DNA from: Promethearchaeota archaeon
GTDB lineage: Archaea; Asgardarchaeota; Lokiarchaeia; Sigyniarchaeales; SOKP01
Direction of reading: 5' to 3'
DNA: 64,000 bases
Assembly: GCA_048941265.1 (NCBI GenBank)
Contig: JBHLNT010000001.1
Coordinates: 32,001-96,000, forward strand
In this document: positions 4,380 through 12,108 of the stretch, one piece after another
Numbering within the stretch: position 1 is the stretch's first letter
How the letters are laid out: every line of letters begins with the position of its first letter
Program-made: the position numbers and the translations under genes
The notes under the pieces: generated by a model
What the model saw: the letters and a program-made list of their open reading frames with translations, nothing else
Told to the model about the DNA's origin: nothing
The model's database searches: none

Positions 4380-6128
4380 ATGGCAATCCTCCTTATTATG
4401 CTGATTATTCTTGCATCCATTATAATTCTCATTCTTTTACTAGTGTTTCGTTATCGTAGTTTTTTCGGCAAGATAAAAGTAATAAAAAGAAAAAAAGAAA
4501 AAGAAAAGTCATTAGACGTGGCATTAGAAAAATATGTAAGAGAAGAAAGTAAAGAGCCCATGAAACAAAAATTAGAAAAAATAACTGAAATGATTGCTCA
4601 AACTGAAGCATATATCGAGGATACAGTAAAGAAAAAGGTCAGGGTTGCTAAAAGTCAACTCAAAGTTAAAGAAAGTGAAGAAGCATTAATTAGTAAAGCT
4701 AAGATGGAATATAATACTTTTATTTCAGACTTTAAATCAGCAATGCCTAAAACAGAGAAAGAACGAGTTCAGGATATGAAAGAGCTTAAAAGTGCGATAT
4801 TAATGCTCGAAACTTTTGATGAAGAATCTTATGAGGCAAAACCTAAGGAATATGATGCGGGATTAGGTATGTTTTATGATAAGATGTCGCGCCGGTTCCT
4901 TTCTATCATAAATGAAAATAATCTGAACAAATATGATTTTATACCTATCCACGAGATAAAATATTATGCTTTTTCAAATATCAAGAATATAAAAAACGAT
5001 GACATTTTACCTATTTTAAACGTAATGAAAGATACAGAACTTTTGCGTAATTTAATCGAAATAAATCCTACGTTTCAAATCATTGTATTTAATAATGGGG
5101 AGAAATTAGATTTAACTTTCCCTGAAAAAGTTCTTTTAACATTTGCTTATGAAGAAGATATACTTACTAATCAAAAATTAATAGAGTTAACTGATTGGAA
5201 AGAGGATTATGCCAATAAAATTATTGAAGGTTTAAAGGATAAAGGTCTCATTAAGTTTGAAAATGAAAAAATTACAGTTGAGAATTTTGGAAGTGTGGAG
5301 GAACGGAGAAATTGGAACAAAATAATTCAAAATAAAATAGAAGAAGAGAAGAAAAAAGAAGAGGAAAAACGTAAACAACAGTTAGAAAGAGCCGCAAAGC
5401 TGAAAGAACGCTTAGGAGAGGTTGAAGAAGCAGTTATCTCAAAAGAGTCTGACTCTGAAAAAGTATTAAAACAAGAGCCAAGTAAAATTAAATTCAAGCA
5501 AAAACCTGCAATAAAAAAATTACCAAAACTTGAAGGAGAAATTAAACCAGAAGAGGTCACTAGTAAAGATAAACTTAAGGAAGAACAAGATATTAAGGAC
5601 AAGGATGATTTAATCGGAGCCATGGAGGCCCTTGACATAATAGCGCCCGCGAAATCGGTAGAAAAATTAGAATTAAAAGGAGATCTACTAGAAGAAGAAA
5701 TTTCCAATCTTGAAGAATTAATCCCTGAAAAAATATTAAGTTATCATGAAAAATTCACGTTGATTAATGGAGGTTTGTCTCAATATGAAAAAATAAAGCG
5801 ATTTATTGAGCGGGAGTTAGGAAAAATATCCGATGATTTGATAAAATCTGTACTTGAACAGCTAATAGAATTGCAGATGATACATGGCATATATAAAATT
5901 GGAGATTATGATTTTTACCTTTTTAATGAATTGTCACTAACAGAGGATGAAAAAACATTCATTCAATTTGCTATTAACAAGAAACCTATGTTTAAGGAAG
6001 ATTTTATACAAGGATTAAATTGGGATGAGGAAAAAATTTTAAAAACTATGAAAACTCTTCAAGAAAAAAGTATTTTAAGAATTGAAAACAACGAAATTAT
6101 TATCCCTGGGATAATTCAAAATAGATAA
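4380..6128 (+). CDS. Single-pass membrane protein with coiled coils and two EAP30 (ESCRT-II Vps22/Vps36)-like tandem winged-helix modules
   Basis: N-terminal 23-aa TM followed by basic patch; GLGMFYDK..LTFPEKVLL..W..IIEGLKDKGLI module; charged linker; NGGLSQYEKI..ISDDLIKSVL..LTEDEK..LNW..IIIPG module. Confidence 0.7.
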   Translation: MAILLIMLIILASIIILILLLVFRYRSFFGKIKVIKRKKEKEKSLDVALEKYVREESKEPMKQKLEKITEMIAQTEAYIEDTVKKKVRVAKSQLKVKESEEALISKAKMEYNTFISDFKSAMPKTEKERVQDMKELKSAILMLETFDEESYEAKPKEYDAGLGMFYDKMSRRFLSIINENNLNKYDFIPIHEIKYYAFSNIKNIKNDDILPILNVMKDTELLRNLIEINPTFQIIVFNNGEKLDLTFPEKVLLTFAYEEDILTNQKLIELTDWKEDYANKIIEGLKDKGLIKFENEKITVENFGSVEERRNWNKIIQNKIEEEKKKEEEKRKQQLERAAKLKERLGEVEEAVISKESDSEKVLKQEPSKIKFKQKPAIKKLPKLEGEIKPEEVTSKDKLKEEQDIKDKDDLIGAMEALDIIAPAKSVEKLELKGDLLEEEISNLEELIPEKILSYHEKFTLINGGLSQYEKIKRFIERELGKISDDLIKSVLEQLIELQMIHGIYKIGDYDFYLFNELSLTEDEKTFIQFAINKKPMFKEDFIQGLNWDEEKILKTMKTLQEKSILRIENNEIIIPGIIQNR

Positions 6129-6182
6129 TTAAATTTTAAATAAATATTAAAAGCAAACAAATAAATAATTGAGCAGAAAATT

Positions 6183-7856
6183 ATGGTTATGATAATTATT
6201 ATTCAAATTTGTTTTATTGGATTAATAGGTATTTTTTCTCTAAGAGAAAAATTGAGAAAAAGAAGAATAAAAAAAAAGGAAGAAATTGAAGAATTAATTG
6301 ATAAATATGTAGTCGAAGAGAAAAAAAGCATATTAAGACAGAAGTTAACAAAGGTTTTTGAATTAATCACTAAAACTGAAGATTATCTCGAAAGAATTGT
6401 TAAAAGAAAAGTAAAATTCTATGAAGATGATTATACATTTTCTGAAGCTGAGAAGGATCTAATTAAAAAAGCTAAATCTGAATACGATTCATTTTTCTCA
6501 GAATTTAAATCGGCATTACCCAAAACTGAAAAACAACGAATATTAGATATAAAAGAGCTTAAGAATGCAATTTCAATACTGGAATCATTTGATGCAGAAA
6601 CTTATGAAGATAAGGAAAAAGTCTATGATGCGGGAACAGGTATGTTCTATGATAAAATGTCTCGTAAATTTATGTATCTCATGGATGAACACAACTTGAG
6701 TGAATTTACTTTTGTACCTATCCAAAGAATAAAATATTATGCATTTTCAACTATAAAAAATATAAAAGATGAGGATTTCATCCCCGTCTTAAGTGTAATG
6801 AAAGAAACTAATCTTATAAGTGATATTATAGAAATAAACCCTCAGTTTCAAATTATAGTGTTTGATGAGGAAAAAAAAATAGTGTTATCCACCCCCGAAA
6901 AAGTAGTATTAAGTTTTGCCTATGATGAAGATCCCTTGACTCTTCATAAACTAATGGAATTAACCCAATGGAAACAAGATTATGCTAAAAAAATACTAAC
7001 TGAATTAATTAACAGAGAAATTATCTCTATGGAAGATGAGGTTATAAAAGTTAAGAATTTTGGTGAGAGTAATGAAAGGATCAAATGGAATACTTTAATT
7101 GAAAATAAAATTCAGCAAGAGAGAATAAAAGAAGAGAGAAAATACGAAAAAAAGAAAGAAAGAGAGCTTCAATTTAAAACAAAAATAGTAAAAGAGAAAC
7201 AAATTTTTGATGAGAAAATCTCTGAGCCAGATAAGGAGGAAGTCCTTGAAGAAATCAAGTTTAAAGAAATACCATCCGTAAAAGTGCTTCCTTCCCCACA
7301 GAAAGCATTAGAAATAGAAAAAAAGAAGGGAACTGAAGAAATGACCGATGTTATAGACGCTTTAGATAATATTATGCCAACAGAATCAACAATTAATAAA
7401 GAAGTTGAAGAATTGCTAGAAACTGAAAGTCCGGATTTGCAAGATTTAGTTTCTCAAGAAATATTAAACTATCATGAAAATTTTTCTTTAATTAATGGAG
7501 GAATTTCTCAATATGAAAAAATTAAAAAATATATTGAGCAAGAATTAGAAAATGTACCAGAAGAAATGTTAAAAAAGACGTTGGAACAATTATGGGAATT
7601 ACGACTTATTTATGAAATAATTAAAATAGGGGATTATGATTTTTTCTTGTTTAACGATGTTTCTCTTAAAGATGACGATAAGGAATTTTTAAAATTTGCT
7701 ATTAACAAAAAACCTATGAAAAACGAAGATTTTATTCAAGGTCTTAATTGGGAAGAGTATAAAATAACATGGACTATAGAGAGACTACAAGAAAAAGGGT
7801 TGTTAAGAAAAGAAAATGATTATATTATTATTCCAGGGATCGTTCAATTAGAATAA
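6183..7856 (+). CDS. Tandem paralog of 4380..6128 (TM plus two EAP30-like modules)
   Basis: Colinear similarity with the previous ORF (FKSAxPKTEK, YDAGxGMFYDKMSR, EINPxFQIIVF, INGGxSQYEKIK, KIGDYDF, AINKKPM, IIIPGI). Confidence 0.7.
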   Translation: MVMIIIIQICFIGLIGIFSLREKLRKRRIKKKEEIEELIDKYVVEEKKSILRQKLTKVFELITKTEDYLERIVKRKVKFYEDDYTFSEAEKDLIKKAKSEYDSFFSEFKSALPKTEKQRILDIKELKNAISILESFDAETYEDKEKVYDAGTGMFYDKMSRKFMYLMDEHNLSEFTFVPIQRIKYYAFSTIKNIKDEDFIPVLSVMKETNLISDIIEINPQFQIIVFDEEKKIVLSTPEKVVLSFAYDEDPLTLHKLMELTQWKQDYAKKILTELINREIISMEDEVIKVKNFGESNERIKWNTLIENKIQQERIKEERKYEKKKERELQFKTKIVKEKQIFDEKISEPDKEEVLEEIKFKEIPSVKVLPSPQKALEIEKKKGTEEMTDVIDALDNIMPTESTINKEVEELLETESPDLQDLVSQEILNYHENFSLINGGISQYEKIKKYIEQELENVPEEMLKKTLEQLWELRLIYEIIKIGDYDFFLFNDVSLKDDDKEFLKFAINKKPMKNEDFIQGLNWEEYKITWTIERLQEKGLLRKENDYIIIPGIVQLE

Positions 7857-7917: not shown

Positions 7918-9669
7918 TTAATAATTATTTTTTACATTATCCATAACAGTTTCAATTTCATTTAAATAGGTATCTCGTTTTCCAAAAATATAAAATCTAA
8001 CTTCAGGTCCTGTACCCGAGGGGCGAAAGTATAGCGTGGAATCTTTACTTTTTAATTGGTAGATATCTATCATATTATTATTATCAGATAAAGCTTGTAC
8101 ACTATAGTGTTTATCTTTTATTTCTATAGTTTTATTATGATTTCTTTCAAAATTTTTCATAATCTTTACTTTCTCCTCATCAGTTGCCGGTATTGTTTGA
8201 TTTATTCCCATTATTGACCAATCGATTGATTGAGATATAATATATCCTCTGCAAATAAGTTCAGTAATTAGTACTAAAGCAGGAACCGGATATTTATCAG
8301 CTATTAAAGGTAAAGGGGAAGAAAAAGAAAATTCTCTTGTATCTGAATTTCTTGATACATTTAAAATGTTAATCGTATGCCCTCCCGATTCTTCCCACAT
8401 CACTGTGACAAATTGACTTTCCTCTAAATGTTGTTTTTCCATTAAATCAATAATCTTTTGGTTCAATGGGATAGGATTGTCTATTTTTATCAATTCTTTA
8501 TTATCTCCTTGCATATAAAGGATGGCAGTATCAATCTTAGACTTTTCAACTTCTATTCCCATTAGAAAATATAATATCACTCCTAAATGTTTATAGCCCA
8601 CGCCAGTCAAAATATTCATAAAGCTAGTATCATCACTTCTTAAGTCAGTTGGAATCGTCCGGATATTGATAATTTTTTTATTGAAATCTTTAGCTAAAAT
8701 GTTATGCATGGCAGAATAAATTTCATTTGGGATATATATGAAATACTGATCATCTCGCTTCACATAAAGAGCAATTCTGTCGCGATCAGCATCAAGCAAT
8801 AGCGCTAAATTTGAGTTGGATTCAGTCATTACTTTCTGCAACTTTTCCTCCTTAATCACTTTGATGGGATTAGGGGGATTTATTTCTTCATTTATTAAAA
8901 TTACATTTGCTCCATAATCTTTAAATAAATTTACGATGCCACGTGCTTCACCTAAATATGGCCAGATTATTATATTTCTATTCTTCAAACTTTTTATTTC
9001 CAATACATCAGCCAAAATCCCTTTCACATATTCATTATTTCTTTGAATGGCATCCGTGAGTATTGGCTTAAAATCAGTTTTAAAATAAATTTCTTTATAG
9101 TTTTTTGCTAGTTCAGAAATTTGCTTAAATAAATCCCCTGACATCGGAATAGGGTACTCAATATAAAATTTTATACCATTCCAAGATAAATCATTATGAC
9201 TTGCCGTAAGTACAATCACAAGATCAATGTCATCATATAATGCTACTGATGCTGCACCATAAGGGGATGAAACTTTAGACTCCCCTGGAAAATCGTCTTG
9301 GTAATAAATTTCATATCCATCATATGCAAAAATTTGTGAAATATAATTTAGGAGGATATCTTTGCTTGGTCTATCATCAGTAACAATTAGAACCTTTAAA
9401 TTCTGGCCATTTTTAATCTCTTTGAATTTGTCACTAATTGCTTTTGCAACTCGTAGGAATAAGAAGAGCTTTCGATTAGTTAAGAAGTATTGATCGTCGG
9501 CAAGGATATCATATATTTGAATTCTCAAACCAGATGTAGGTGCGACTATTGGATCAATTATGTTTATTTCTTCTTCAATTAACTCTGGTAATATCAATTT
9601 TTTAATTCCATTTTTACCATCAGTCATTTGGAGATCTTCAATTTTATATTTGAACAATTTATCCACCAT
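7918..9669 (-). CDS. Phosphohexomutase (PGM/PMM) family protein, divergent
   Basis: TASHN phospho-Ser motif, DADRDR metal loop, EESGG sugar loop, RPSGTGPEVRFY. Confidence 0.88.
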   Translation of the reverse strand: MVDKLFKYKIEDLQMTDGKNGIKKLILPELIEEEINIIDPIVAPTSGLRIQIYDILADDQYFLTNRKLFLFLRVAKAISDKFKEIKNGQNLKVLIVTDDRPSKDILLNYISQIFAYDGYEIYYQDDFPGESKVSSPYGAASVALYDDIDLVIVLTASHNDLSWNGIKFYIEYPIPMSGDLFKQISELAKNYKEIYFKTDFKPILTDAIQRNNEYVKGILADVLEIKSLKNRNIIIWPYLGEARGIVNLFKDYGANVILINEEINPPNPIKVIKEEKLQKVMTESNSNLALLLDADRDRIALYVKRDDQYFIYIPNEIYSAMHNILAKDFNKKIINIRTIPTDLRSDDTSFMNILTGVGYKHLGVILYFLMGIEVEKSKIDTAILYMQGDNKELIKIDNPIPLNQKIIDLMEKQHLEESQFVTVMWEESGGHTINILNVSRNSDTREFSFSSPLPLIADKYPVPALVLITELICRGYIISQSIDWSIMGINQTIPATDEEKVKIMKNFERNHNKTIEIKDKHYSVQALSDNNNMIDIYQLKSKDSTLYFRPSGTGPEVRFYIFGKRDTYLNEIETVMDNVKNNY

Positions 9670-9840: not shown

Positions 9841-10710
9841 CTATTTTTGAGAATAGATCTGATTGATTGCTTCTTTTAATATGGCAAAAATTTTTTCTCT
9901 ATAATTTGGATTAATTGCAATCATGCCATGAACTTTAATCGGTGAAGGAAGATTCTCAGGTTGGAAGAGAATTTTCTCACAAAATTCGGGAGTGAGCCGA
10001 TTAGGAAGGTCTTGTTTATTAGCAATTCCAATTATCAATGTATCCTTATGATATTTTCCTAAGATATCACTTATGATTTCCTTTGATGCATTTAAATTCT
10101 CAAATGTAGAATCTAATACTAAAAGTGCAATGTGAGTCCCTTCTAATAGACTTCTCCATAATGAGTGAAACTGACGCTGACCAGCAAAGTCCCAGAAAAT
10201 AACTGGTAGATTTCCAAGTTCAGGACTCTCATAATTGGCTATATCAGCAGTTATGGTAGGAACGTATTCTAAGTCAATATCTTTACCGCATATTAAATGT
10301 AGTAGCGTTGTCTTCCCAACCCCTCCATAACCTATAATAGATACCTTAACTGCACCTAATATCACATTATCAATAGCTTTTTCAAATCTGTCAAAAACCG
10401 AACGATCTCCATCCCAAGCCCCACCTTCAAAAACCATCCCATATTCATCAATGAATTTAGCCCTAATGCTATTAATTTTTGAATTTATATGTGCATCATC
10501 ATCTTCCAAATCAGCACATACTACAATAATTAAAGATCCTACAATTGTATAGAAATATTTAAAATCTTCAGTGGCAGTGGATTTTATATCGGATTGGCTA
10601 ATCTCTTTTATAAATCCCGAAAAAGCAGAAAGAAAACCAGATAAAAGATCACGATCTATTTCAGTATCACCATAATTTCTGAAGAATAACGATTTTCCGT
10701 CTTTGAGCAT
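9841..10710 (-). CDS. Longin-domain plus small GTPase (Arf/Rag-like) fusion
   Basis: N-terminal longin-like domain (DGKSLFFR..DLLSGFLSAFSGFIKEI); GYGGVGKTT, YVPTI, WDFAGQ, NKQD; probable true start ATA at 10731. Confidence 0.85.
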   Translation of the reverse strand: MLKDGKSLFFRNYGDTEIDRDLLSGFLSAFSGFIKEISQSDIKSTATEDFKYFYTIVGSLIIVVCADLEDDDAHINSKINSIRAKFIDEYGMVFEGGAWDGDRSVFDRFEKAIDNVILGAVKVSIIGYGGVGKTTLLHLICGKDIDLEYVPTITADIANYESPELGNLPVIFWDFAGQRQFHSLWRSLLEGTHIALLVLDSTFENLNASKEIISDILGKYHKDTLIIGIANKQDLPNRLTPEFCEKILFQPENLPSPIKVHGMIAINPNYREKIFAILKEAINQIYSQK

Positions 10711-10860
10711 TATGTTGACGTATTGTATTATATTTTACCACTTCAGAAGTTTTTTATTTATGTACTATATTATTAAAATATATTTATTAAATAAACTTGA
10801 TAAATTAAAAATTATTTTTTTCCAAAATTTAGATCTTTATTTGAAACAGAGGAATGTTTA

Positions 10861-11487
10861 ATGCCAAAATCGGATGATTTGAATCAGGGAGATATTGCTA
10901 AGTTGATTGAAAATTTAAATGAAAAAATGAACGGATTTTCTTCAATCATTCAAAAGTTCGGATTAGATATTATTACAAAAATGGGGCAAACTAATTCTAA
11001 AATAAAAGTACTTTCTGATAAAGTAGATAAACTTGATAAGACTACTTTAGATTTAAAGGCATTACTTCCAAAATTAACCAATATTATAGATAATCAAAAT
11101 ATTTTGGAATCAGAAATCGATCTTATAAAATCCTTAATTCAAAGAACGAGTACTTCAATGCCACAGAATGAGCTTGAAAGAGAGATTGAAAGAGACGAAT
11201 CTATTACAATGAATAAACAAGAAGTCACTGACCAATTTAAAGAATTACTGAAAATTTTAAATGATACAGAAGAGAACCAAAAGATTAAAAAAGAATTACA
11301 GAAAATAAAGGAAAATATCTTTGAATTTACTGGAGGTCATAAAATTCTTTATGAAATTTCGCAAGTTTTGAACAAAATGAATAATGATCAATCCATTTCC
11401 GAAAGTTTGAGAAAGGAACTTAAGGAAAAAATCGAATTTTGGATTGTTAAGTTGCAAAGCACACCATTTAAAAAAGCAATAAAGTAG
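10861..11487 (+). CDS. Coiled-coil hypothetical protein
   Basis: 208-aa ORF with ATG and upstream GAGG; heptad-rich N-half, helical C-half. Confidence 0.7.
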   Translation: MPKSDDLNQGDIAKLIENLNEKMNGFSSIIQKFGLDIITKMGQTNSKIKVLSDKVDKLDKTTLDLKALLPKLTNIIDNQNILESEIDLIKSLIQRTSTSMPQNELEREIERDESITMNKQEVTDQFKELLKILNDTEENQKIKKELQKIKENIFEFTGGHKILYEISQVLNKMNNDQSISESLRKELKEKIEFWIVKLQSTPFKKAIK

Positions 11488-11538
11488 AAATACTATAATT
11501 CAAAAAGTGGTAAAATATTTAAAATAAAAATTGATTAA

Positions 11539-12108
11539 TTATCCCTTAGTTCTATATGTAAATACTAAGTTAGCAATCTTTTCAAAGATTTCATTAACGC
11601 CATTTCCCGTTAACGCAGAAGTTTCGAAATAAGGTGCATTTAATTCCTCGCTAAGGTGATTTGCCATGGGGAGGATAATCTTTCTTTCATCCTTTAAATC
11701 GATTTTATTTCCGACTAAAATTCGGGGTATCGCGCTAAGTCCATATTTTACTGTGGTATTGTACCAATTCTTAACATTTGAGAATGTGGAACTTCTCGTA
11801 ACATCGAATACAAGCATCATACCATCAGCTCCATTAAAATACGGTTTATGCAGCATGTAGAATTGGGGCTGTCCTGCAACGTCCCAGAGCATTAGATTTA
11901 CTAAAGCCTCTGCACCTTTATCTTTAACTATGACTTGCTCCTTGACAATATTAACACCTACAGTCGGAATATATTGCGTCTTAAATTTTTTTGTAGCAAA
12001 TTTTGTTAGGAGGCTTGTTTTTCCAACCGCCGGATCACCAACCACGATTACCTTAAAGATAGATTCAGTCTTTCCTTGAAATACTATATCTTCATCTTTT
12101 TTCGACAT
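11539..12108 (-). CDS. Rab-like small GTPase
   Basis: G1 GDPAVGKTS, G2 YIPTVG, G3 WDVAGQ, G4 NKID, G5 ETSA; no C-terminal Cys prenylation motif. Confidence 0.95.
   Translation of the reverse strand: MSKKDEDIVFQGKTESIFKVIVVGDPAVGKTSLLTKFATKKFKTQYIPTVGVNIVKEQVIVKDKGAEALVNLMLWDVAGQPQFYMLHKPYFNGADGMMLVFDVTRSSTFSNVKNWYNTTVKYGLSAIPRILVGNKIDLKDERKIILPMANHLSEELNAPYFETSALTGNGVNEIFEKIANLVFTYRTKG

Follow-up and report, generated by a model that had tools for sequence, protein, structure and literature searches.

Genes A and B and their domain architecture

We analysed a 64,000-nt stretch of DNA (the window) from a Promethearchaeota archaeon (GCA_048941265.1, contig JBHLNT010000001.1, positions 32,001–96,000 of the forward strand), in which two adjacent genes, A and B, encode predicted membrane-anchored proteins that each carry two modules resembling Vps22, a subunit of the eukaryotic membrane-remodelling complex ESCRT-II. 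All positions are in window numbering; the genome is referred to as G000 and the contig carrying the window as C211. Gene A (4380..6128, + strand, 582 aa) is the less diverged paralogue, and gene B (6183..7856, + strand, 557 aa) is a faster-evolving copy with the same architecture. The two open reading frames (ORFs) contain no internal stops, are separated by an AT-rich spacer of 54 bases in DNA of about 28% G+C, and encode proteins with 51% identity over 533 residues (BLASTP, E 2e-173). The identity to single-copy orthologues is 43–52% for A and 36–43% for B. Each of the 91 homologues of A belongs to an Asgard metagenome bin, in most cases given as Promethearchaeota or Lokiarchaeota and in a few as Hod- or Thorarchaeota, and none has a functional name (unnamed or "hypothetical"). 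The A/B stretch was also present in two further sequencing runs, with 94% and 65% of the sampled words found. Because the ORFs are intact, the pair recurs in another assembly (locus L005) and the stretch occurs in these two runs, we ruled out that A and B are pseudogenes or an assembly artefact.

Each protein contains one strongly hydrophobic 19-residue window, located at the extreme N-terminus (Kyte-Doolittle mean of 3.65 in A and 2.77 in B). In A, it corresponds to a transmembrane (TM) anchor at residues 2–23 (4383..4448), followed by a basic patch from R24 to K41, with 9 K/R against 2 D/E within residues 25–45; the K/R count in this interval is 8–9 across A and B. Because the basic patch follows the TM helix, the positive-inside rule predicts a single-pass anchor with the bulk of the chain in the cytoplasm. 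A hydrophobic N-terminus was found in 21 of 28 family ORFs. Residues 31–179 of A (4470..4916) form long helices in the AlphaFold2 (AF2) model and include an invariant GxGMFY motif at A161–166; the N-terminal model (m58aa6fd73372) places helices at 2–23, 26–91, 97–121 and 131–150 (model numbering, to which 29 is added to obtain the residue in A), with a predicted local distance difference test score (pLDDT) of 55–80. Module 1 (M1, residues 187–299, 4938..5276) comprises Vps22-like tandem winged helices (WH1 and WH2), as judged from structure and profile matches. It is followed by a K/E-rich linker (residues 306–435, 5295..5684; 24% K+R and 26% D+E) that is predicted to be disordered near its end, with pLDDT under 50 at A400–439. 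The linker varies in length among homologues, which measure 503–635 aa in alignment A1 (36 sequences). It contains a conserved motif at residues 370–382 (5487..5525) and, at residues 405–419 (5592..5636), the motif IKDKDDLIGAMEALD, which hhalign aligned with the N-terminus of canonical Asgard Vps22. Module 2 (M2, residues 436–582, 5685..6125) consists of a helix, WH1 (466–514) and WH2 (522–574) according to AF2, Foldseek, VIA-align and hhalign, and is the most Vps22-like part of A.

In B, hydrophobicity places the TM helix at B1–20 (6183–6242), comparison with A places the winged helices of M1 at about B177–289 (6711–7049) and M2 at about B411–557 (7413–7853), and the linker motif IKFKEIPSVKVLP lies at B358–370 (7254–7292) in alignment A1. 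A first-pass annotation had described a TM helix, a basic patch, a helical region, two modules and a charged linker in both paralogues; hydrophobicity, composition and the AF2 models agree with this layout, and the motif strings that it quoted are present in the translations of A and B. It had set module 1 at about residues 100–300: a module does exist there, but its winged-helix part is confined to about A187–299, residues 31–179 being the long helices.

The two modules are related to each other. An internal repeat was visible by BLASTP between A174–307 and B434–557 (25% identity, E 6e-5), and profile-profile comparison of M1 with M2 gave a probability of 97.8% (E 7.5e-13, 130 columns). Both modules are acidic, with median net charges of −5 and −6 and a positive charge in only 1/27 and 5/28 members.

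Predicted fold of the two modules

We modelled M2 with AF2 from alignment A2 (28 sequences, A400–582) and the N-terminal half from alignment A3 (27 sequences), and compared the models with a Foldseek library of 350,542 PDB chains and with VIA-align, an aligner independent of Foldseek. The M2 model reached a pLDDT mostly above 90 in its folded part, and the model of the N-terminal half a pLDDT of 77. The three best Foldseek matches of M2 were human SNF8 (2zme_A, E 3.4e-7; 3cuq_A, E 1.6e-6) and yeast Vps22 (1u5t_A, E 3.7e-6), with a root-mean-square deviation (rmsd) of 2.8–4.0 Å over 141–151 columns. Every other protein with two winged helices gave an rmsd of about 9–19 Å against M2, so that only one winged helix fitted. 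VIA-align likewise ranked yeast Vps22 (1w7p_A, Z 13.9, 147 residues, rmsd 3.6 Å) and human SNF8 (3cuq_A, Z 13.1) at the top, with rmsd values of 3.6–4.1 Å over 147–148 residues across the Vps22 structures; its next match was a single winged helix at Z 8.0. A viral structure library gave no match to M2 at E up to 0.001.

For the N-terminal half, Foldseek returned SNF8 (E 2.4e-6 and 4.7e-6) ahead of yeast Vps22 (2.7e-3) and Vps36 (3.3e-3 to 9.7e-3). These alignments extended over 221–225 columns against SNF8 chains of 217–219 residues and included part of A31–179, at an overall rmsd of ~16 Å. When M1 was compared by VIA-align, it matched yeast Vps22 (1w7p_A, Z 11.4, rmsd 3.7 Å, 144 aligned) and human SNF8 (3cuq_A, Z 11.3, rmsd 3.5 Å, 147 aligned), and the next matches were MarR-type proteins (Z up to 9.4) covering ~60 residues of WH2 at 1.3–3.9 Å. 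In the predicted models, the margin over MarR-type proteins is thus smaller for M1 than for M2, but both winged helices are spanned by Vps22 only. A search of the ESM Atlas with the N-terminal helices gave one SNF8-named cluster with a score of 0.77, below the level reached by shuffled proteins, and we treat it as a lead only.

These results indicate that, at the level of the models, M1 and M2 both have the tandem winged-helix orientation of the EAP30 type preceded by a helix, and that both resemble Vps22 more than Vps36. The first-pass annotation had called the modules ESCRT-II-like, of the Vps22/Vps36 kind, and had proposed a comparison with generic MarR/TrmB-type winged helix-turn-helix (wHTH) proteins. 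The ESCRT-II likeness is upheld by fold, tandem geometry and sequence profile; its Vps22 side stands, while Vps36 scored lower for both modules in Foldseek; and Vps22 fits far better than the MarR/TrmB-type regulators, which cover one winged helix only.

Sequence-profile relationships of the modules

We compared the modules by hhalign with alignment A7, composed of the canonical Vps22 of the genome and its relatives, all rows of which match Pfam EAP30 (PF04157). M2 aligned with a probability of 98.2% (E 3.5e-14, 117 columns) and M1 with 97.3% (E 1.9e-11, 115 columns). Vps25, another tandem winged-helix protein of ESCRT-II, served as the control and gave 0.2% both for M2 and for Vps22 itself; the Vps22 signal thus does not stem from winged helices in general, and M2 does not group with the Vps25 family (PF05871). 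Aligned end to end, A2 (A400–582) matched the whole 238-aa Vps22 over 186 columns (98.3%, E 2e-14), the N-terminal part being gap-rich and less certain. At the level of sequence profiles, both M1 and M2 thus show significant homology to bona fide EAP30/Vps22 members.

The M2 profile was also searched against 1.84 billion proteins, giving 81 matches at E up to 0.001, 51 of which were scanned with Pfam (EAP30 gathering score, 26.8 bits). EAP30 was detected at E up to 0.01 in 16 of these 51 and exceeded the cut-off in nine. Among the latter were the single-module proteins P0154, P0161 and P0163 (219–257 aa), which the M2 profile found at library-wide E values of 3.9e-6 to 3.3e-4; P0154 combined the best of these (3.9e-6) with an EAP30 score of 44.6 bits. 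P0164 also passed the cut-off (27.9 bits) and was rejected as a canonical EAP30 protein, because it proved to be a fragment of the anchored Vps22-like family (TM helix and M1).

Several searches speak against assigning the modules to this lineage. Neither A nor B matched Pfam EAP30 at E values up to 1, where only a sub-threshold Phage_rep_O wHTH was reported, and the EAP30 scan of the genome (E up to 1) left the window contig C211 unmatched, the canonical gene on C42 (35.5 bits) lying on the only contig above the cut-off. Among 36 family members, EAP30 was found at E up to 0.1 in three (best 3.4e-6), and generic wHTH models appeared more often (Phage_rep_O in 13, NirdL-like_HTH in nine, TrmB in eight). 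A search of the PDB with the hidden Markov models alone was not significant, with SNF8 on top for M2 (E 0.075); for M1, a MarR protein (E 0.045) scored better than SNF8 (E 0.75). Three further proteins among the 51 (P0143, P0158 and P0160) are multi-wHTH proteins, of which two contain TIR domains, and the M2 profile matched them only via WH2.

The same scans did not place A and B among MarR/TrmB-type DNA-binding regulators: Pfam reported neither MarR nor TrmB in either protein with E values up to 1, the matches in relatives were weak and confined to one winged helix, no model rose above threshold, the structural matches covered ~60 residues of WH2, and the modules are acidic. Taking fold and profile together, we consider both modules, with near certainty, to have diverged within the Vps22 lineage and to be true Vps22 homologues on a membrane anchor.

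Comparison with known ESCRT-II proteins

Eukaryotic Vps22 (SNF8/EAP30, PF04157; 1w7p_A, 1u5t_A, 3cuq_A, 2zme_A) is soluble, has ~230–260 aa and one module, and contacts the membrane only via a basic N-terminal helix. The modules of A and B share with it the helix and two winged helices in the same geometry, and both winged helices align in register, with the conserved W of WH2 matched as well. A and B differ in having two modules per chain and a true TM helix, at an identity of 14–16%. Eukaryotic Vps36 (2zme_B, 3cuq_B, 1u5t_B) is the second EAP30-type subunit, through whose GLUE domain ESCRT-II contacts the membrane. A and B have neither a GLUE/PH domain nor a zinc finger, and carry an integral TM helix in place of lipid binding; by analogy, the anchored protein could fill a role matching that of Vps36.

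A further counterpart is the Asgard Vps22/36-like protein (asCOG cog.002769, Makarova 2024), represented in this genome by a 238-aa copy on contig C42 (G000:C42, L001 1183–1899), the whole of which aligns with A400–582. Both M2 and this canonical Vps22 end in hydrophobic residues followed by P-G/S. The canonical protein is soluble and basic (net charge +2 to +7), lies beside Vps25/Vps4/ESCRT-III and is 71–100% identical among the 120 matches listed, whereas A and B are anchored, have acidic modules, evolve fast and lie elsewhere in the genome. With their TM helix and two modules, they also depart from Asgard ESCRT-II as described, which is soluble with one Vps22 module. The haloarchaeal arCOG11741 of the "Halo_adaptin" ESCRT-like loci (Makarova 2024, PMC11188069) is described, in the accessible part of that text, as a duplicated winged helix with an N-terminal helical domain "like eukaryotic Vps36"; by that description alone, it is set apart from A and B by one winged-helix pair, no TM anchor and an ESCRT-III/Vps4 neighbourhood.

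According to the available portions of Hatano 2022 (PMC9192718), each Asgard genome carries just one gene of the Vps22/Vps36 type and lacks Vps36, so that homodimers of Vps22 have to replace the Vps22-Vps36 stalk; Asgard Vps22 is described there as self-associating, and Vps25 as a binding partner of ESCRT-IIIB. The corresponding portions of Makarova 2024 (PMC11188069) list a Vps22-steadiness box fusion, Vps25 variants and a two-wH/SB/Zn-ribbon family, with no TM-anchored double Vps22 among them. Six locus tags of the family were absent from 10 supplementary files of the mBio version of that paper; files 7 and 9 lay outside the search, and the family may be listed there by COG number. A preprint excerpt (Liu 2020, 10.1101/2020.10.19.343400) mentions "the fusion of two EAP30/Vps37 domains" shared with eukaryotes, an ambiguous phrase that seems to refer to the ordinary protein, and the accessible text of a 2026 preprint (10.64898/2026.10.28.762692) contains a second small structural cluster of three Asgard Vps22-like proteins, left undescribed there. 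Within the portions of text that a full-text literature search reached, no paper stated the TM-anchored double-Vps22 architecture. This accords with the first-pass annotation, to which the architecture was not known from the literature, to the extent that the excerpts of the Asgard ESCRT papers compared here represent it. What is new is an architectural variant within the known Vps22 family, of interest for the origin of ESCRT.

Distribution, duplication and variants of the family

The M2 profile was scanned against 400 genomes of the phylum, with matches at E under 1e-40 counted as strong. Matches at E up to 1e-5 were found in 79 genomes and strong matches in 44, and seven genomes from two sister families of the same order gave intermediate matches (1e-14 to 1e-26). 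Many of the remaining weak matches lie in frames of ~240 aa, the length of canonical Vps22. Vps25 accompanied a strong match in 39 genomes and was missing from the other five, which are 72–92% complete; because Vps25 occurs in 346 of the 400 genomes anyway, this co-occurrence is non-discriminating. The anchored Vps22-like protein is a lineage-specific addition confined mainly to one Asgard order and no core part of ESCRT. Throughout that order, its ORF has been kept intact.

Almost every genome has a single copy, and the tandem pair was seen only in the window genome and in that of L005 (G175). We built a maximum-likelihood tree of 30 rows, excluding the single-module L031 and rooting on three distant long-branch rows. 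A and B formed one clade with their L005 orthologues, in which the A and B lineages were sister clades (Shimodaira-Hasegawa-like approximate likelihood ratio test, SH-aLRT, 97), with branches about twice as long for B. This sequence-based tree points to a young A/B duplication with B as the faster copy; ancestrally, each genome had a single gene. The duplication noted in the first pass is therefore real as regards paralogy, but it is a recent event in this genome and one relative and no general feature of the family. Divergence is fast relative to the flanking genes, with 47% identity for the target against 68–81% for its neighbours in L007.

The anchor itself varies. In the four-member clade L006–L009, which has a stem branch of 0.77, the TM helix is lost; these orthologues have 540 aa, no hydrophobic N-terminus and the start MKKNIISDFLN... 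(e.g. L007 9977–11599), and an amphipathic helix may have replaced the anchor. In one genus, a 268-aa protein (L031 1664–2470, + strand; = P0100) consists of a TM helix, a short linker and M2 only, without M1. A sister family contains M2 joined to half of a major facilitator superfamily (MFS) transporter (L039 9793–11025, − strand, and P0112; PF07690, E 8.3e-19), and P0103 joins M2 to a receiver-like domain, read by eye. Six soluble proteins of ~170 aa (P0136, P0139, P0140, P0145, P0146 and P0155) have an acidic N-terminus and one M2-like unit, and distant two-module proteins of 630–770 aa keep the full architecture. Because M2 is found alone behind other anchors, it is probably the portable core working unit.

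Conserved motif in the linker

Within the otherwise variable charged linker, the motif I-K-F-x-x-K-P-x-V-K-x-L-P stands out as a conserved island. In alignment A1, F372 (34/36), K375 (33/36), P376 (34/36), K379 (34/36), L381 (31/36) and P382 (31/36) were conserved. A relaxed form of the pattern was found in the linker of 30 of the 36 sequences compared with 37 of 1800 shuffles, and a stricter form also occurred in 12 of 28 distant two-module relatives. Judged from its conservation, it is a candidate docking motif.

Genomic context

No Vps25, ESCRT-III or Vps4 gene lies in the window, as the first-pass annotation had stated; the profile matches in the genome were on contigs C13 and C42 for Vps25 (PF05871), C13, C42 and C335 for Snf7 (PF03357), and C13, C42 and C331 for Vps4_C (PF09336), never on C211. 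On C42 (loci L001 and L037), Vps22, a 303-aa Vps25, Vps4 and a Snf7-family gene stand side by side, and a second Snf7-Vps4-Vps25 set is located on C13 (locus L036). The Vps25 of C13 (299 aa) appears to be the match P0319 and is ~64% identical to the C42 copy. The two sets are either true paralogous ESCRT loci or come from two strains that were binned together (estimated contamination, 4.79%).

Across 27 related loci, the conserved order is an acyl-CoA-dehydrogenase-like gene (−; 19 loci), the target (+), a convergent PGM/PMM-like gene (−; 24 loci), a 289-aa Roc/Arf-type GTPase (20), a coiled-coil protein (18) and a Ras-like GTPase (about 17). In the window, the PGM/PMM-like gene lies at 7918–9669 (− strand, 583 aa; PF02878, E 7.9e-12), and it was also seen at L039 7893–9764, L040 10501–12276 and L042 2713–4509. 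It is the convergent neighbour in two of five distant relatives (target identity of 25–37%), and in a third it is found no more than 5 kb away. Such persistence beside the target is unusual for genes on opposite strands. The trio that follows (9841–12108, mixed strands, ~17–20 of the 27 loci) comprises the 289-aa Roc/Arf-type GTPase (−), whose N-terminus bears an additional domain of ~110 aa, together with a coiled-coil protein of 208 aa (+) and a Ras-family GTPase of 189 aa (−), and may be a small-GTPase trafficking module. The shared gene order is weak evidence of function, because the strands alternate and most of the loci come from one family of genomes.

Possible functions of the anchored Vps22-like proteins

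From what Vps22 does elsewhere, we propose that A and B act as membrane-tethered ESCRT-II-like adaptors, a reading to which we give somewhat less than an even chance. The N-terminal helix would lie in the membrane and the two diverged Vps22 units in the cytoplasm, with a flexible charged linker of ~130 residues between them. Each module would pair with another Vps22-type module, as Vps22 does; candidate partners are the second module of that chain, the paralogue and the soluble Vps22, for which homodimerisation in Asgard is described in the portions of Hatano 2022 cited above. The first-pass annotation had put forward a single-chain pseudo-dimeric core and a possible A/B heterodimer, both of which stand here as proposals. 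The paired modules would bind Vps25, and via it ESCRT-III, or else parts of ESCRT-I, and would bring the ESCRT machinery to the membrane's cytoplasmic side independently of a lipid-binding GLUE domain, which Asgard archaea lack. A more specific form of this proposal seems doubtful to us. In it, the double-Vps22 protein would be the missing membrane-binding half of the Lokiarchaeial ESCRT-II and an integral-membrane forerunner or analogue of Vps36: its modules would pair like Vps22-Vps36, within the chain or with soluble Vps22, each would dock Vps25, ESCRT-III would be nucleated at a fixed membrane spot without ubiquitin, ESCRT-I or GLUE, and the linker motif IKFxxKPxVKxLP would serve to attract an additional factor. 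Complex prediction of M2 (A4) with the winged-helix part of Vps25 (A8, residues 120–303) scored 0.00 in two runs in which the controls remained unfolded, and it gives no evidence either way.

Several observations count against a role of A and B in ESCRT. The strong matches all fall in the window's own family, in 44 of its 135 genomes, and a genus of that family with 54 genomes contributed a single one; since the anchored family is absent from most Vps25-bearing genomes, ESCRT works without it. The TM helix was lost in L006–L009. A and B are not located with vps25/vps4/ESCRT-III or vps23/vps28, as described Asgard ESCRT-II genes are, and no ESCRT gene was among the neighbours in the 27 related loci, which were acyl-CoA-dehydrogenase-like, PGM/PMM-like and small-GTPase genes. 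The runs found to contain the A/B stretch were nine DNA data sets from five studies, and none was of RNA.

Part of this would suit the main rival, a membrane-tethered scaffold of the Vps22 fold working outside ESCRT, in small-GTPase trafficking, in membrane or envelope biogenesis, or with some other lineage-specific partner bound by the winged helices or the linker motif. We regard it as a serious possibility, albeit one with a minority chance. Besides the distance from ESCRT genes, it draws on the conserved block that includes a coiled-coil gene and two small-GTPase genes, on the PGM/PMM-like gene that stays convergent even beside some distant relatives, on a patchy distribution among genomes that all have ESCRT, and on the fast evolution seen in L007; winged helices are, moreover, general protein-binding modules. 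The same neighbours, however, lie on opposite strands and mostly in one genome family, where the order may be inherited and non-functional, and M2 keeps the Vps22-specific geometry of two winged helices and the C-terminal hydrophobic-P-G ending, which suggests that a Vps22-type interface has been retained. A further explanation is a membrane-tethered nucleic-acid-binding protein of four winged helices, either a membrane-bound transcription regulator that proteolysis would set free or one that ties the chromosome or RNA to the membrane: the WH2 of each module has sub-threshold matches to MarR, TrmB, Crp-like, DnaD_N and Phage_rep_O, MarR-type regulators superpose on that of M1, and the fusion of a receiver-like domain with M2 in P0103 is an arrangement typical of response regulators. 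Yet both winged helices are aligned by Vps22 only, the sequence profile relates to Vps22 and to no regulator family, and both modules are ill-suited to DNA binding because they are acidic in nearly all members. The Vps22 family is not known to include DNA-reading members, and this explanation is quite unlikely. Fast divergence from the flanking genes, a recent duplication with an accelerated copy, and a patchy distribution with repeated loss or change of the anchor would also fit an ESCRT-II decoy or regulator, whose anchored copies would retain at the membrane Vps22, Vps25 or an ESCRT-recruiting factor encoded by a virus, and so damp or redirect budding, for example in conflict with viruses. 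This evidence is circumstantial throughout; neither defence genes nor mobile elements turned up next to the gene, the viral structure library gave no look-alike of M2 at E up to 0.001, and we judge a decoy very unlikely.

If A and B are ESCRT-II-like adaptors, the anchored double-Vps22 family would be a concrete candidate link in how Asgard ESCRT-II finds the membrane without a GLUE domain. The family shows that an ESCRT-II building block has been duplicated and re-used in Lokiarchaeia beyond the published inventories, and the occurrence of M2 behind a TM helix, an MFS half and a receiver-like domain points to a portable docking module. Should the protein be unrelated to ESCRT-III, it would still be an evident example of how an ESCRT fold was taken over for a different membrane task.

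Other features of the window

A scan for sigma-70-type promoters and terminators gave 28 hits against 21.1 ± 4.4 in shuffles, which is not above background, and the model is not meaningful for an archaeon. Upstream of A, an ORF of 146 aa (2272–2712, − strand) has two N-terminal CxxC pairs, with weak zinc-ribbon-type matches, and a hydrophobic C-terminal half; from its sequence, it looks like a small membrane-bound zinc-ribbon protein.

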